NCBI GenBank assembly: GCA_017463185.1
Contig: JAFTPS010000013.1
Span: forward strand, 3,826-67,825
Direction: 5' to 3'
Source of the DNA: Alphaproteobacteria bacterium
Lineage (GTDB): Bacteria > Pseudomonadota > Alphaproteobacteria > Rs-D84
Length of the DNA stretch: 64,000 nucleotides
Positions within the stretch are counted from its first letter, which is position 1; every line of letters starts with the position of its first letter. Positions 2,902 through 32,837 of this stretch are shown here, one piece after another. Under the pieces are notes generated by a model. The model was not told the origin of the DNA, made no database searches, and saw nothing but the letters and a program-made list of their open reading frames with translations. The translations under genes and the position numbers were made by a program.

Positions 2902-2958
2902 AATTTCACCTTGCGAATGCATGAATACTGGTATATCATTGCCGCATAAGGAAACTGA

Positions 2959-2981
2959 GTGGTTAGTGTAAGTGGTTAGTG
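2959..2981. repeat. Left inverted repeat of the four-helix-bundle gene cassette (GTGGTTAGTG-type)
   Basis: gtggttagtgtaagtggttagtg matches the reverse complement of 3339-3361 at 22 of 23 positions. Confidence 0.85.
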
Positions 2982-2997
2982 GCTAGTGGTGGAATAC

Positions 2998-3363
2998 ATG
3001 AAATCAGTCAAGGATTTAAAAGTTTATCAATGTGGATTTAAATTGACGATTGATGTATATAGGGTTACGGCTTGCTTTCCACCGAATGAACAATTTGGGT
3101 TAGTTTCACAGATGCGTAGGGCCGCTGTGTCTGTATGTTCTAATTTAGCAGAAGGGGCGGCGCGTGGAACAACGAAAGAGTATTTGCATTTTGTGTATGT
3201 AGCAAAAGGCTCGGCTGCGGAACTGGAAGCACAAATAGATTTAGCGACTGCATTAGGGTTTGTTGAAAAGGCCAAAGCAGGACAAATACATAAAGATATA
3301 ACGGAAGTTTTAAGAATGTTATCAGGATTGATTCATTCACTAACCACTAACACTAACCACTAA
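2998..3363 (+). CDS. Four-helix-bundle protein (23S rRNA intervening-sequence protein family)
   Basis: LKVYQ..F.L...VY.....[23 protein letters not shown]...GTTKEYLHF....GSAAELEAQ is the family signature. ATG at 2998 (the track start at 2986 is GTG). Confidence 0.8.
3339..3361. repeat. Right inverted repeat of the four-helix-bundle gene cassette
   Basis: cactaaccactaacactaaccac. It encodes the protein C-terminus (LTTNTNH) and pairs with 2959-2981. Confidence 0.85.
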
Positions 3364-3377
3364 CAACTGGTAATAAC

Positions 3378-7117: not shown

Positions 7118-8368
7118 ATGAAAAGAGTTGTTATTACCGGAATGGGTATTGTTTCCCCCGTGGGGACCGGAATTGAATATGCATGGAAAAATATTTTGGC
7201 GGGTAAATCAGGGGTTCGCAAAATAGATACTTTTGATGTGTCTGACCTGGCGTCGCAAATCGCTGGTATTCCACAGCAGGGGACAGACGAAGGGATGTAT
7301 AATCCAGATGCAGTGGTTGATGCGCGTGAACAGCGCAAGTTAGATAAATATGCAGTCTATGGTATGGTTGCGGCAGATGAAGCAATCAAAGATGCGGGAT
7401 TGGATAAATATGATGGCGATATGACACGCGTTGGGGTGTCTATTGGCAGTGGTATTGGTGGTTTTAATACAATTTATGATAACTGTATTGAATTGCATAC
7501 TGGTGGTCCGCGTCGCGTTAGTCCGTTCTTTATTCCAAAGGGCATTATCAATATGGCGGCGGGCAATATTTCAATAAAGTATGGTTTAAGGGGGCCAAAT
7601 ATTTCTGTGGTGACGGCGTGTGCGACCGGTGCGCATTCTATTGGCGAAGCCGCACGTATGATTAAATATGGTGACGCAGATATTATGGTATGTGGTGGCA
7701 CCGAAGGTGCGGTCAGTCGTATTGCATTGGCGGGATTTTCCGCGATGAAAGCATTAAGTACGCGTAATGATGAACCTGAAAAGGCTTCACGTCCGTGGGA
7801 CAAAAATCGTGACGGTTTTATTATGGCCGAAGGTGCCGGTGTATTGGTTCTGGAAGAATATGAACATGCGGTTGCGCGTGGCGCAAAAATCTATGCCGAA
7901 GTTGCAGGGTACGGTATGTCCGGGGATGCGTATCACATTACTGCGCCCGCCCCAAATGGCGAGGGTGGCGCACGTGCAATGGCGGCCGCATTAAAGGATG
8001 CTGGCTTAAATCCGTCAGATGTTGATTATATAAATGCGCACGGCACATCAACGGGACTGGGTGATGTTGGTGAATTGGCCGCGGTTCAGGGATTGTTTGG
8101 TGATGTGCCGGTTTCTATGTCGTCAACAAAATCTATGACAGGGCATTTGTTGGGGGCGGCCGGTGCGGTAGAGGCTATTTTCTGTGCGCTGGCAATTCGT
8201 GATGGTATTGTTCCGCCGACAATCAACCTGGACGAACCAGAAGATGTCGTTGGCAACTTTGACCTGGTGCCGCATGTTGCAAAATCACGCAAGGTTGATG
8301 TTGCGTTGAGTAACAGTTTTGGCTTTGGTGGAACAAATGCATCTATTGTGTTGAAAAAATTAAAATAA
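7118..8368 (+). CDS. fabF: 3-oxoacyl-ACP synthase II
   Basis: 416 aa. VVTACATGAHSIG (active-site Cys), NAHGTSTGLGD, GHLLGAAG, SNSFGFGGTNASIV. Confidence 0.96.
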   Translation: MKRVVITGMGIVSPVGTGIEYAWKNILAGKSGVRKIDTFDVSDLASQIAGIPQQGTDEGMYNPDAVVDAREQRKLDKYAVYGMVAADEAIKDAGLDKYDGDMTRVGVSIGSGIGGFNTIYDNCIELHTGGPRRVSPFFIPKGIINMAAGNISIKYGLRGPNISVVTACATGAHSIGEAARMIKYGDADIMVCGGTEGAVSRIALAGFSAMKALSTRNDEPEKASRPWDKNRDGFIMAEGAGVLVLEEYEHAVARGAKIYAEVAGYGMSGDAYHITAPAPNGEGGARAMAAALKDAGLNPSDVDYINAHGTSTGLGDVGELAAVQGLFGDVPVSMSSTKSMTGHLLGAAGAVEAIFCALAIRDGIVPPTINLDEPEDVVGNFDLVPHVAKSRKVDVALSNSFGFGGTNASIVLKKLK

Positions 8369-9643: not shown

Positions 9644-9739
9644 ATGAGAATTACATATGAACATAAAAAGTGTATAGTTTATTATGTTGCCGTCGTTGCA
9701 ATATTGCTGTGCGGCGTTATGATTGGAATAGGGTATTAA
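9644..9739 (+). CDS. 31-aa single-TM mini-protein (not in ORF track)
   Basis: Strong SD aaagggggg 6 nt before the ATG at 9644. MRITYEHKKCIVYYVAVVAILLCGVMIGIGY, stop at 9737-9739, terminator immediately after. Confidence 0.4.
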   Translation: MRITYEHKKCIVYYVAVVAILLCGVMIGIGY

Positions 9740-9767
9740 AAATCCCGCCATTGGCGGGATTTTTTTC
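9738..9767 (+). terminator. Rho-independent terminator
   Basis: aaaaATCCCGCCattGGCGGGATttttttt. The hairpin is identical to the one at 32811-32837. Confidence 0.85.
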
Positions 9768-9768
9768 A

Positions 9769-9835
9769 GTGGTTAGTGTAAGTGGTTAGTGAATAGTGGC
9801 GGAATACATAAAAAGTTATTAGTGTTTTGTTATTA
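9769..9835 (+). repeat. Solo remnant of the four-helix-bundle cassette 5' end
   Basis: agtggttagtgtaagtggttagtgaatagtggcggaatacataaaaag aligns with 2958-3004, but ATG has become ATA and the ORF is gone. Confidence 0.75.
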
Positions 9836-9892
9836 TAATGTGTGATACGACCATCAACACTGGCATAAAATTAAAATCGCCACAGGGGCGAT
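9828..9892. repeat. Direct repeat copy 1 (about 65 bp, includes a terminator hairpin)
   Basis: The 49-bp core gatacgaccatcaacactggcataaaattaaaatcgccacaggggcgat is identical to 10001-10049. Flanks are partly conserved. Confidence 0.9.
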
Positions 9893-9896
9893 AAAA

Positions 9897-9990
9897 ATGT
9901 GTCGTGCCTGGGCTGTAATTCCCACCACTTTGTGGCGGGCCCCTTTCACTTCGCGTGCAAGCACGCCTCGTTCCGAACCACACATTATTG
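9897..9990 (-). ncRNA. Candidate small RNA between duplicated terminator modules
   Basis: GC-rich, about 95 nt. Hairpins CCCGCCAC-AAAG-GUGGUGGG and GCGUG-CUUG-CACGC on the minus strand. Followed by the same terminator that follows tRNA-Pro. Identity unknown. Confidence 0.25.
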
Positions 9991-10049
9991 CATAATGTAT
10001 GATACGACCATCAACACTGGCATAAAATTAAAATCGCCACAGGGGCGAT
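9984..10049. repeat. Direct repeat copy 2
   Basis: See 9828-9892. This copy lies directly downstream of tRNA-Pro on the minus strand. Confidence 0.9.
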
Positions 10050-10059
10050 TTGAATTTTA

Positions 10060-10136
<77 letters not shown>

Positions 10137-10266
10137 TTAAACAATGCGGACCTGATTATGCAATTAAAATTTATAAAAATCAATCTTTTTTGTTGAATTT
10201 TTCCCTTGTATTTTTGCCTTTATCGCACCATATTTATCTTTGCATACAACAAAAAAAGGAATAAAT

Positions 10267-11946
10267 ATGTTTGCATTACGTTTTTTACAAAAAAATAAAT
10301 TTGATAATTATGATGATTATCGTAAAAACGCAACGCCAACTGTTCCTGATAACTTTAACTTTGCGTATGATGTTATTGACGTTATGGCAGACGAGACGCC
10401 AGACAAAGTTGCATTGTTATGGGTCAACGACAGTGGTGAAAAGAAATCAATCACATTTAAGGCTTTGTCACGAATGTCAAATGCTGTGGCGAATTTTTTA
10501 AGTGCGCGTGGTTTGAAAAAGGGTGACACGGTTTTATTATTTTTGCGTCGTCGGTGGGAATATTGGGTTTTGATGATGGCGATGCATAAATTGGGGGTAA
10601 TTCCAATTCCGTCAACCAATCAATTAAAGGCCGAGGATATTGAATATCGTATTGATACCGCGGGTGCACGTGCAATTATTGCGTTTGATGATGGTATGGT
10701 TGTCGGAGAAATCAAATCTGCCATTGGGGACCGTGATGTCCAGCTGATTGACTGTGCCGAGATTTCAGACGCAGCCGAAAATGGAAATCCGAAATTGGAA
10801 CGCGTGCCGAATGAAACATTGGATACTATGGTGATTTATTTCACCAGTGGCACAACCGATTTACCAAAAATGGTGGCGCATAATTTTGCATATCCATTGG
10901 GACATATCAATACGGCTGTGTTCTGGCAAAGATTGACGGATGATGATATTCACTTTACATTGTCTGAGTCAGGTTGGGCAAAATGTTCGTGGGGTAAAAT
11001 GTATGGCCAGTGGTTGGCAGGTGCGACTGTGTTTGTGTTTGATTTCAGTCGTGTGTTTACTGCGCACGATTTGTTGACCGCAATTGCAGAAAATCGTGTG
11101 ACGTCGTTCTGTGCGCCGCCGACCGCGTATAAAATGATTATTCATGCGGATATGAGTAAATATGACCTGTCGTCGTTAAAGAAAGCCGATATTGCGGGTG
11201 AAGCCCTGAATCCAGAAGTTTATGAACGTTTCCTGGAAAAGACCGGTATCAAGATGCGCGAAGGTTTTGGTCAGACAGAAACCTGTGTAATGTTGTTTAA
11301 CAATGAATGGATTGAACCAAAACCAGGGTCTATGGGTATGCCTGCGGCCGGTTGGGATGTTCAATTATTGGATGAACGTGGTCGTCCGGTTGCTGATGGT
11401 ACGGTGGGTGAAATCTGTGTTTGCCTGAAAGATTCACGTCCGATCGGATTGTTCCAGGGGTATCACAAAAATGAAAAACTGACCGCGGCGGCATATCGCG
11501 ATGGTTATTATCATACGGGTGATGTCGCATACCGTGATGCGGATGGGTATTTCTGGTTCGTGGGGCGCAATGATGATTTGATTAAAAGTTGTGGATATCG
11601 TATCAGTCCGTTTGAGGTGGAAAGTGTTCTGTTGGAACATCCCGCCGTCCGCGAGGTTGCCGTCACCGGTGTTCCCGACGCGGCCCGTGGTCAGGCGGTT
11701 AAAGCAACCATTGTTTTGAATAAATATTTTCAGCCGACTGATGTTGTAATGCGTCAATTACAGGACCATGTAAAATCCCGCACGGCGCATTATAAATGTC
11801 CGCGTGTGATAGAATTTGTGGACAGCCTGCCGATGACTATCAGTGGGAAAATTCGTCGTGCGTTGATTCGCACCCTGGACAGTGCCAAGGAAACAATCGT
11901 TGACCCAGTTAAAAATACGATTGGCCTGGGCAAGAAAGAGGAATAA
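10267..11946 (+). CDS. AMP-forming acyl-CoA synthetase (medium-chain type)
   Basis: YFTSGTTDLPKMVAH (AMP-binding), GYYHTGDVAYRDADGYFWFVGRNDDLIK, SGKIRR. ATG at 10267 after aaaaagga. Confidence 0.85.
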   Translation: MFALRFLQKNKFDNYDDYRKNATPTVPDNFNFAYDVIDVMADETPDKVALLWVNDSGEKKSITFKALSRMSNAVANFLSARGLKKGDTVLLFLRRRWEYWVLMMAMHKLGVIPIPSTNQLKAEDIEYRIDTAGARAIIAFDDGMVVGEIKSAIGDRDVQLIDCAEISDAAENGNPKLERVPNETLDTMVIYFTSGTTDLPKMVAHNFAYPLGHINTAVFWQRLTDDDIHFTLSESGWAKCSWGKMYGQWLAGATVFVFDFSRVFTAHDLLTAIAENRVTSFCAPPTAYKMIIHADMSKYDLSSLKKADIAGEALNPEVYERFLEKTGIKMREGFGQTETCVMLFNNEWIEPKPGSMGMPAAGWDVQLLDERGRPVADGTVGEICVCLKDSRPIGLFQGYHKNEKLTAAAYRDGYYHTGDVAYRDADGYFWFVGRNDDLIKSCGYRISPFEVESVLLEHPAVREVAVTGVPDAARGQAVKATIVLNKYFQPTDVVMRQLQDHVKSRTAHYKCPRVIEFVDSLPMTISGKIRRALIRTLDSAKETIVDPVKNTIGLGKKEE

Positions 11947-11969
11947 AATCCCCCATTTGGGGGATTTTT
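11945..11969 (+). terminator. Rho-independent terminator
   Basis: ATCCCCCatttGGGGGAT followed by T5. Confidence 0.85.
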
Positions 11970-12030
11970 ACTAGTGAATGCTGAACAGTGAAAATGGAAT
12001 TTATAAAATATCGTCATATCAGCGCGGGCC

Positions 12031-12056
12031 TCTATCCACTAACGACTCGCCACTAA
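12031..12056. repeat. Degenerate remnant resembling the cassette right IR (CCACTAAC-type)
   Basis: tctatccactaacgactcgccactaat, shortly after a terminator. Confidence 0.4.
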
Positions 12057-14972: not shown

Positions 14973-15218
14973 TTGTTCTATCTCCTGTGTTTTTTGATTA
15001 AAAGCAAAAAACCGTCAATTTTTTTGACGGTCAGGAGGTTAGTAACAATCCATAGAATTGCGTGCTTATTTATGTATATCGCAACCCTCCTGACCGATGG
15101 TCAGGAGATTTTTTCGTCACAGACAATAAAAAAAGACGCGTTTTTGCGCCATTTTAAGTCTTGTTTGTTGACGCTATGGCAGAGGTTACTACGCCTCATC
15201 GTCAGAATACCTGACGAC
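14973..15218 (-). promoter_or_regulatory. Conserved structured 5' leader, copy A (homolog of 44365-44603)
   Basis: The minus-strand core at 15005-15115 is about four-fifths identical by eye to 44477-44588. It has a CUCCUGACC-nnn-GGUCAGGAG hairpin, a downstream CCUCCUGACCGUC, and a terminator hairpin with a U-run. Confidence 0.55.
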
Positions 15219-32162: not shown

Positions 32163-32546
32163 ATGGCAGTTACAAAAGCTAAAAAGAAAGTTGTAAAAAA
32201 AGTATCGCACGGCATTGCACACGTTGTTGCGACTAATAACAATACACGTATTACAATCACAGACCAGTCTGGTGCCGTGTTGACCTGGGCCACCGCTGGG
32301 GCAAATAATTTTAAGGGCGCGAAAAAGTCCACACCATATGCCGCAACAATCGTTGCAGATGCAGTTGGTAAAAAAGTCGCCGAAATGGGTATGAAAACAG
32401 TTGATGTTTTGATGCGTGGTATTGGTCAGGGTCGTGAATCTGCTGTACGTGGATTGGCAAACGCCGGTCTGATTGTGCAGTCCATTACCGATACAACGCG
32501 TATTCCGCACAATGGGTGCCGCCCAAAGAAAGTGCGTCGCGTGTAA
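32163..32546 (+). CDS. rpsK: 30S ribosomal protein S11
   Basis: GIAHVVATNNNTRITITDQSG...KGAKKSTPYAA...DTTRIPHNGCRPKK.RR. Confidence 0.98.
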   Translation: MAVTKAKKKVVKKVSHGIAHVVATNNNTRITITDQSGAVLTWATAGANNFKGAKKSTPYAATIVADAVGKKVAEMGMKTVDVLMRGIGQGRESAVRGLANAGLIVQSITDTTRIPHNGCRPKKVRRV

Positions 32547-32549
32547 TAA

Positions 32550-32578
32550 AAATCCCGCCAACGGCGGGATTTTTTTTA
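32550..32578 (+). terminator. Strong rho-independent terminator directly after rpsK
   Basis: aaaaATCCCGCCaacGGCGGGATtttttttt. Confidence 0.9.
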
Positions 32579-32597: not shown

Positions 32598-32706
32598 TAT
32601 TCTTTTTTGTCATTGCGAGCGAACGCGCCTGCCATACGAAGCCTTGGCGTAGTGTGGTGGCAAACCAGTAAATTAGTGTAAGTTGTTAGTGGATAGTGTT
32701 GAAATT
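32598..32706 (+). repeat. Degenerate remnant of the four-helix-bundle cassette 5' region
   Basis: gtcattgcgagcgaa...taaattagtgtaagttgttagtggatagtgttgaaat is similar to 2936-2996. No ORF. Confidence 0.5.
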
Positions 32707-32810
32707 CCGGGGTGGGGGGGGGAAAAGATAGAAATACCAATCCCCCACCCAGGTTTTACTAATTCACTGTCGTTCATAAGTAAAACCGTCCCGCCCCACA
32801 AGGGGGCAGG

Positions 32811-32837
32811 GAAAATCCCGCCATTGGCGGGATTTTT
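32811..32837 (-). terminator. Terminator of the Cys-rich operon (hairpin identical to 9738-9767)
   Basis: ATCCCGCCattGGCGGGAT just beyond the stop at 32840, with A and T runs on both sides. Confidence 0.75.

Follow-up and report, generated by a model that had tools for sequence, protein, structure and literature searches.

Stand-alone copies of a four-helix-bundle cassette arm in an alphaproteobacterial chromosome as probable members of a clade-wide extragenic repeat family

To our knowledge, neither the ORF-bearing IVSs of rRNA nor the large PF05635 protein family has been assigned a function since the 1990s. The STRR sequences of heterocystous cyanobacteria are intergenic tandem arrays of 7-nt units, and we know of none that is tied to PF05635 genes or to terminator junctions. 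In the 23S rRNA of Coxiella burnetii, an IVS with a 28-bp terminal stem and an S23p ORF in the loop is excised by RNase III, and tandem heptamers, whose copy number varies between strains, lie upstream of that ORF (PMC4990558). The REPIN literature interprets singlets as doublets in decay and notes A and T runs beside some doublets; the gene associated with them is present in a single copy, is inherited vertically and has repeats of its own type on its flanks (PMC3337134). Finally, the Avd protein is structurally related to PDB 2GSC (PMC10053308).

The window analyzed here, meaning the whole stretch of 64,000 nt, is a bacterial chromosome segment that carries lepA, fusA, tuf, ribosomal-protein operons and two tRNAs. 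An Rfam search of the whole window, including 9740-10260, returned only tRNAs and Alpha_RBS as known RNA families, and no rRNA. Between a promoter-like box and lepA, the window contains a cassette (2958-3366) with the following parts:

2911..2939, + strand: promoter-like box TTGCGA-17-TATCAT, upstream of the cassette
2958..2992, + strand: left arm of the IVS-type cassette, units GTGGTTA / GTGTAA / GTGGCTA (arm profile E=1.2e-8)
2998..3363, + strand: four-helix-bundle protein gene, 121 aa, with PF05635, TIGR02436 and 2GSC matches
3335..3366, - strand: right arm, an inverted array that reads CACTAACCACTAACACTAACCAC on the + strand (arm profile E=7.7e-10)

The ORF belongs to PF05635 (E=2.7e-35, 121.2 bits) and TIGR02436 (112.6 bits) by their curated cut-offs of 33.8 and 24, and matches PDB 2GSC, a solved pentameric four-helix-bundle protein, with E=1.7e-21. 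Against the Avd models it scored far below the cut-offs (NF033474, 24.3 bits with a cut-off of 80; PF22296, 17 bits), and the called genes of L001 around the cassette include no reverse transcriptase; the ORF shares only distant homology with the Avd of diversity-generating retroelements and does not qualify as a DGR Avd. The arms are 24 nt long and 96% complementary, and a predicted 23-bp stem (2958-2981/3338-3361; dG -127 kcal/mol, z=-3.9) closes the whole ORF, which it encloses in both the minimum-free-energy and the centroid fold. The right arm also encodes the C-terminal SLTTNTNH* of the protein and ends 12 nt before the lepA ATG (3378). Terminal inverted repeats that form a long stem around a PF05635 gene in the loop, of 23-24 bp here, are shared with the 23S rRNA IVSs of Coxiella and Leptospira, as are, in the Coxiella case, tandem heptamers upstream of the ORF. 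Unlike those elements, which are inserted in helix 25 or 45 of 23S rRNA, the cassette follows the promoter-like box and precedes the lepA start codon, which places it in the 5' leader of the lepA mRNA, and its relatives stand before rnhA or between sdhA and sdhB. An identical 121-aa protein is encoded on a metagenome scaffold and on some short contigs of related samples.

Comparison with related genomes revealed three states of the rbfA-lepA spacer. The order promoter box, arm, four-helix-bundle gene, arm and lepA is found in the window, in L090 (80% protein identity), in L111 (70%) and in P0020 and P0032 (63%), and the site is filled in L113 and L116 as well. In L040 the promoter box is followed directly by lepA, and in L078 a single arm makes up the whole spacer; both still carry arms without having the lepA-site cassette. 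The promoter-like box is kept in relatives with and without the cassette (L040, L090, L111, L113 and L116). In all five clade members tested (the window, L090, L111, P0020 and P0032), the gene occupies the same lepA-leader site. Because filled, empty and arm-only states occur alongside synteny down to ~63% identity, the cassette is, by this comparison, an old resident of the lepA site that is occasionally lost, not a recent arrival. No target-site duplication was evident at the filled versus the empty lepA site or at the T-run junctions described below. A Rickettsiales relative (56% identity) has the same cassette build before rnhA, and the arm-encoded TTNTNH terminus is present in ~30 of the 46 closest homologues, down to ~57% identity, in a set retrieved through the protein. 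Within such loci, retrieved through the protein and not the arm, conservation at the lepA site is higher in the arms than in the ORF between them.

The initial annotation had described a copy of the left arm and the first codons of the gene at 9769-9835, and had read it as a cassette with its ORF deleted. This region has two parts:

9738..9766, + strand: intrinsic-terminator-type hairpin AAAAATCCCGCC-ATT-GGCGGGATTTTTTT, read directly, ending 1-2 nt before the array
9768..9813, + strand: solitary 'left-end' copy made up of array AGTGGTTAGTGTAAGTGGTTAGTGAATAGTGG and extension CGGAATACATAAAA; the extension corresponds to the SD/ATG region of the cassette, with ATA in place of ATG

Exact copies of the 23-mer GTGGTTAGTGTAAGTGGTTAGTG stand at 2959-2981 and 9769-9791, and an inverted copy with one mismatch at 3338-3360, whereas 0 matches are expected in shuffles. 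From 9768 to 9813, 42 of 46 nt (91%) are identical to the left end of the cassette at 2958-3003, a stretch that covers the SD-like GGTGGA and the start codon; the match reaches through GG(C/T)GGAATACAT(A/G)AAA, where the ATG of the cassette is ATA. A profile of arms from other genomes recovered the copy, with its matching segment at 9764-9803 (nhmmer, E=1.5e-9). The described resemblance therefore holds up to 9813; past this point similarity to the cassette is undetectable, and neither tblastn nor a profile HMM found a remnant of the four-helix-bundle ORF beside the solo copies, including the sequence from 9814 onwards. We also tried to extend the homology past 9813 by way of a deletion (AAAAGTT(T)AT) and rejected this alignment, which has no statistical support. 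The hairpin is 91% identical to the terminator at 32543-32576 and has the same build as 32548-32574; our terminator scan missed it by counting its A and T tracts as stem.

Outside the window, 3.4 kb upstream on its contig (L001:1579), there is a third left-end copy, which joins a terminator in the same way and carries the extension GGTGGAAGGCAT. Solo copies of the window, of L001 and of several other genomes bear the extension GGYGGAAxxCAT(G), whose counterpart in the cassette comprises the SD and the start codon; this extension argues that at least this extension-bearing subfamily would derive from the cassette left end, which fits the earlier proposal. Of the filled and empty sites whose comparison the initial annotation had suggested, the lepA site thus provides filled, empty and arm-only examples, and the 9769 copy is present in L207, the one other strain-level contig read in this presence/absence check, nine further contigs with the neighboring gene having been collapsed as similar and left out.

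Several observations concern the tRNA-Pro gene next to this copy. A 58-nt direct repeat, 98% identical, at 9835-9892 and 9992-10049 includes the tRNA-Pro terminator, stands beside tRNA-Pro(cgg) (10060-10136, - strand) and flanks a GC-rich insert of 99 nt that matches nothing in Rfam. The corresponding tRNA-Pro of L019 has its 3' end and terminator duplicated around an unrelated insert of ~250 nt. From their sequence, these duplications around inserts look like att-site scars of integrated elements. The array lies upstream of the tRNA in L019 and downstream of it in the window. An inversion between the 9769 and 12031 sites was considered for the flipped tRNA-Pro/AMP-ligase block of L019 and rejected, since the arm orientations do not fit and the 12031 site is not significant.

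We carried out the search for the arm across genomes that had been proposed earlier, using an exact match to the 23-mer and one genome per species, and it uncovered a dispersed family. The 23-mer was found in more than 107 stretches, with 45 assemblies among the matches listed; 39 of these 45 are MAGs of gut or rumen Alphaproteobacteria (Candidatus Enterousia and relatives), and the other six listed are Frigoriglobus, another Planctomycetota, Nitrospinota, Prevotellaceae, Terriglobales and Stigonema. One MAG holds at least 14 exact copies, and a search of 2.9 million viral contigs gave 0 matches. The four-helix-bundle gene was detected by tblastn and profile HMM in only 3 of the 107 arm-bearing 8-kb blocks listed (L026, L090 and L111). 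The loci were chosen by the exact 23-mer, which biases copy conservation and the shares of solo and paired copies; they come from MAGs and metagenome contigs, not closed genomes, with genes called as crude long ORFs and terminators found by a simple detector.

Defining an array as at least three AGTG cores spaced by 6 or 7 nt, we identified 180 arrays in the retrieved loci. Their units alternate between 7 and 6 nt, (GTGGTTA)(GTGTWA)n, in an array sequence also written GTGGTTAGTG, and some arrays are expanded to 9-26 units. Almost all are intergenic (178 of 180 outside long ORFs), and 55% have an inverted partner within 800 nt, across spacers mostly of 14-105 nt. The cargo between arms varies: there is a recurrent core of ~40 nt, and there are small hairpins, further repeat modules and, in occasional cases, unrelated small genes. 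Arms within doublets were no more complementary to each other than arms from different loci (p=0.15), so selection for pairing finds no support here. Clustering of 1,760 ORFs over ~800 kb revealed no recurrent transposase-like gene near the arms, just housekeeping and surface-protein families, and no insertion sequence was found in the sampled arm loci.

Some of these loci have features of their own. The rpoB-rpoC spacer is an arm hairpin in five rumen Alphaproteobacteria (L006, L024, L032, L106 and L109), where the CACTAAC-strand arm immediately precedes the rpoC ribosome-binding site, whereas the loop and the distal arm are variable; the invariant arm in five species was considered as proof of purifying selection and rejected, as the loci were picked by exact arm match. 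An inverted-repeat module, GATAAATAAAAGTTTAG / CTAAACTTTTATTTATC, is nested in arm pairs around a GC-rich structured core (L025, L108, L014, L075 and L055), and the right-hand arms at these loci can be other heptamer arrays (TGCCTTA; CTGCACT/CTGAACT). In the Stigonema MAG (L065), 26 tandem GTGGTTA units at ~866 are followed ~100 nt on by an inverted GTTAGTT/GTTGGTT array, an STRR-like arrangement; the 8-kb block contains no four-helix-bundle gene. STRRs are the nearest purely sequence-level analogue of our arrays, both being intergenic tandem heptamers, in host clades that differ.

Compared with random intergenic positions, the arrays lie next to a terminator 6-10 times as often. An array starts within 8 nt of a T-run in 22 of 180 cases compared with 28 of 1284 random intergenic positions (p=1e-8), and a terminator hairpin follows within 12 nt of the array in 28 of 180 compared with 22 of 1284 (p=4e-14). 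In 19 of 23 terminator-adjacent cases the T-run passes straight into AGTGGTTAGTG (TTTTT|AGTGGTTAGTG), and the window copy has one extra C at this junction. Solo arrays just after gene 3' ends lie mostly in sense orientation (37 sense versus 12 antisense, p=5e-4), a bias that could equally reflect the replication strand. Of the terminator-targeting mobile element, with later decay, that the initial annotation had suggested, the positional bias is thus upheld, and the decay of whole cassettes is weighed below. As a separate observation, the terminators of the window share one bidirectional form, A5-8 TC(C/G)CC..loop..GG(G/C)GA T5-8, and a repeat finder groups them as a family (1381-1410, 9738-9766, 11945-11970, 32548-32574, 32811-32837, 43685-43710, 44203-44232 and 46612-46648).

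Three weaker relatives had been described along with the 9769 copy, one of left-arm type at 32598-32706 and two of right-arm type at 12031-12056 and 44274-44306. We ranked the four sites by a window-wide local-alignment scan and by an nhmmer profile built solely from 114 arms of other genomes. The relevant features are:

32609..32667, + strand: a different recurrent intergenic module, GTCATTGCGAGCG...GGCAAACCAG (also written GTCATTGCGAG...), not an arm, adjoining the degenerate array
32673..32705, + strand: degenerate stand-alone array TTAGTGTAAGTTGTTAGTGGATAGTGTTGAAAT, in the spacer between terminators 32548-32574 and 32811-32837
12031..12056, - strand: claimed right-arm remnant CTATCCACTAACGACTCGCCACTAA, no statistical support
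44274..44306, - strand: claimed right-arm remnant, same as background

The left-arm relative narrows to 32673-32705, where 29 of 33 nt are identical to the arm and the local score is 46 against a window background of at most 23; 32673-32699 matches the profile with E=0.11. Judged from this alignment, it is a plausible degenerate copy of the arm. In L079 an intact arm stands directly after the orthologous rplQ terminator, with the degenerate array of the window placed 100 nt further on. The remainder of the described relative is the module at 32609-32667, which has 21 copies in six other loci, often beside arms (e.g. L088 and L089). This module takes the form GTCATTGCGAGCG...GGCAA(A/T)CCAG, and a second nested module, AATTCCGGGGTGGGGGGGGG, lies at 32703-32722 and in three other loci.

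The two right-arm relatives fell away. At 12031-12056 the local score of 28 is just over background and the profile match (12032-12043, E=5.9) is not significant; at 44274-44306 the score of 22 equals background, there is no profile match, and the orthologous spacer of L088 contains no array. The arm profile places neither site in the array family, and both appear to be chance resemblances, 12031 only probably so. Doubts about the significance of the weaker remnants were thus justified for these two sites, whereas 32673-32705 stays plausible. The placement of all four sites downstream of a terminator was correctly observed, as T-run hairpins precede each of them (9738-9766, 11945-11968, 32548-32574 and 44200-44235). 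At the two insignificant sites this proximity says little, since a terminator is present in every spacer that follows a gene; both real solo copies of the window lie between two facing terminators.

Just past the 44274 site, a strong promoter-like site (TTGAAA-17-TATAAT with TG) precedes a non-coding stretch of ~230 nt (window 44330-44585) that is 77% identical to L088. The stretch ends in a terminator-like hairpin at 44482-44500, and ~90 nt of it recur inverted at 15021-15111. It is a candidate small RNA or leader; the only Rfam match nearby is a sub-threshold CcsR1 match further on, at 44686-44740.

Taken against the known systems, the cassette resembles an S23p-type IVS without the rRNA location, and its arms behave like REP/REPIN sequences without a Y1 transposase or palindromic units. 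As in the REP/REPIN systems of Pseudomonas and Enterobacteria, the arrays are extragenic and occur as singlets and inverted doublets. As with a RAYT, the four-helix-bundle gene is at a single site per genome checked, is vertically inherited and is flanked by an inverted dispersed repeat, and the pairing of gene and repeat type is lineage-specific, as in REPIN-RAYT systems. The flanked gene, unlike a RAYT, is a PF05635 member with no known nuclease or transposase motif and no Y1 (HUH) transposase character, and the arms, unlike REPs, are direct tandem arrays of 6/7-mers that are not self-complementary and do not form an imperfect palindrome with a GTAG head. The abundance of arms without the gene also sets them apart from IVSs, for which we found no such report in the IVS papers. 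MITE-type elements (Correia/NEMIS, RPE, ERIC/BIME) offer a further likeness, being small, non-coding, nested and modular, with inverted ends and an intergenic location near gene ends, and some copies of them, as of our arrays, supply stop codons or terminator-like hairpins. Unlike MITEs, the arrays have ends built from tandem sub-repeats of variable length, and neither a target-site duplication nor a parent insertion sequence was found at the sites and loci sampled.

We consider it probable that 9768-9813 and the degenerate 32673-32705 are stand-alone members of a clade-wide extragenic repeat family, REP/REPIN-like in behavior, and not decayed cassettes. The same repeat, as an inverted pair, makes up the predicted stem around the PF05635 gene in the lepA leader; under this interpretation the solo copies would be REP/REPIN-like offshoots of the cassette ends, copied or converted by a putative trans-acting activity. 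Arrays may then be tolerated where they do least harm, which in the window would be the untranscribed gap between facing terminators, and paired copies as well as the cassette may fold into long RNA hairpins of the kind that RNase III cuts in rRNA IVSs. Mobility of the arrays is a plausible hypothesis.

A less probable account, which nevertheless deserves some weight, treats the arrays as cis-elements of the host, that is, RNA or DNA signals produced by slippage and maintained in particular spacers by selection or gene conversion. They might be hairpins at 3' ends or between cistrons, sites of processing or protein binding, or leader sequences. Such a role would suit the sense-strand bias at gene 3' ends, the slippage that tandem expansion to 9-26 units shows, and the greater conservation of the lepA-site arms than of the ORF between them in the protein-retrieved loci. 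Orthologous spacers of different species also carry arrays (rpoB-rpoC in five, the rplQ terminator in the window and L079, and the lepA leader), but the rpoB-rpoC conservation is an artefact of how the loci were retrieved, and array positions shift between relatives, as at tRNA-Pro in L019 and the window. Moreover, the solo copies of the window stand beyond terminators, where little transcription is expected, and many different cargoes lie between the arms.

It is improbable that a mobile four-helix-bundle cassette inserts by terminators, loses its ORF and leaves solo arms behind. Decay of this kind would explain why 9768-9813, L001:1579 and solo copies of other genomes keep the post-arm extension with the SD-like GGYGGA and ATG or ATA, and it would accommodate the filled, arm-only (L078) and empty (L040) states of the lepA site. 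However, no solo copy has an ORF remnant beside it, for each cassette among the matches listed there are more than 30 arm-only sites, and the gene keeps to one inherited site in the five clade members, which together argue against serial decay of whole cassettes; most copies, besides, are short-spacer doublets, which ORF loss does not produce. The earlier reading of the solo copies as cassettes with the ORF deleted is therefore one we do not retain. Chance or low-complexity resemblance is a far-fetched explanation overall, which holds for 44274-44306 and probably for 12031-12056 but is excluded for 9768-9813 by the shuffles and the profile match and is unlikely for 32673-32705, the window having four unit clusters (the two cassette arms, 9771 and 32671) where 0.03 are expected.

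Beyond this clade, we collected 80 diverse PF05635 genes (40-52% identity) from metagenomes, 69 of which were testable, and looked for inverted repeats with one arm in the 110 nt upstream and the other at the ORF end or downstream of it, with ORFs of 90-250 aa from the same loci as controls. Inverted arrays surrounded 43 of the 69 PF05635 genes but none of the 94 control ORFs (p=1e-21). Among the 43, the arms consist of tandem 7-mers in 30 and of 8-mers in 13, with lineage-specific units such as GGGACTA, GGCGAGT, GTGGCCA, AGGGGTC, GTGACGA and AGTTTCG, and the right arm starts inside the ORF in 17 of 43. In Paludibacter propionicigenes WB4 (CP002345; L201 10001-10375) the PF05635 gene has inverted (AGTTACG)n arms, and the same build was found in Pirellulimonas nuda (GGGGCGA) and in a further contig (AGAAGCG). 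Arm 11-mers recur outside the cassette in 12 of 44 loci, compared with 3.3% in cross-locus controls, and about 6 of the 12 recurrences are clearly distant stand-alone arrays or doublets without a second gene. With 43 of 69 genes set between inverted arrays, the arm copies of the window can be read as a local instance of a wider gene-in-array pattern. In a literature search that was incomplete, we found no link between PF05635 genes and inverted heptamer arrays or dispersed stand-alone arrays outside Coxiella.

More speculatively, and with decidedly less confidence than we place in the repeat family itself, PF05635 proteins may be trans-acting partners of lineage-specific heptamer-array repeats in the manner of RAYTs and REPINs. 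The partner in such a system may be a pentameric nucleic-acid-binding protein that is not a transposase; 23S IVSs would be the subset that landed in rRNA, and the arrays at 9768 and 32673 would be non-autonomous copies. Housekeeping operons (lepA, rnhA and sdhA-sdhB) carry the gene-in-hairpin unit in their leaders or between cistrons, most PF05635 members tested have arms made of lineage-specific 7-mer or 8-mer arrays, and in at least one clade the arms double as a genome-wide extragenic repeat with a precise terminator junction. The IVS question thereby becomes testable through protein-array binding, RNase III excision from mRNA and array movement, and the annotation of a very common 'hypothetical' gene, as well as of a repeat family in gut Alphaproteobacteria, gains a practical rule.

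A few observations at these and other loci stand by themselves. The Paludibacter cassette lies between sdhA (flavoprotein subunit) and sdhB (iron-sulfur subunit) in an operon for succinate dehydrogenase / fumarate reductase. In L204 (ERZ25039500 contig_14418), a 154-aa ORF at 7726-8190 has a weak Y1_Tnp (IS200-like) match and is located 2 kb from a PF05635 cassette, which makes it a possible RAYT-type partner; in the same region are another PF05635 gene, several toxin-antitoxin genes and additional (AGAAGCT)n arrays. Within the window, the ORFs 44829-46622 and 55675-58710 contain diverged in-frame tandem repeats of ~93 nt (45484-46381) and ~216 nt (57097-58586), respectively, and by their repeats look like repeat-domain proteins.
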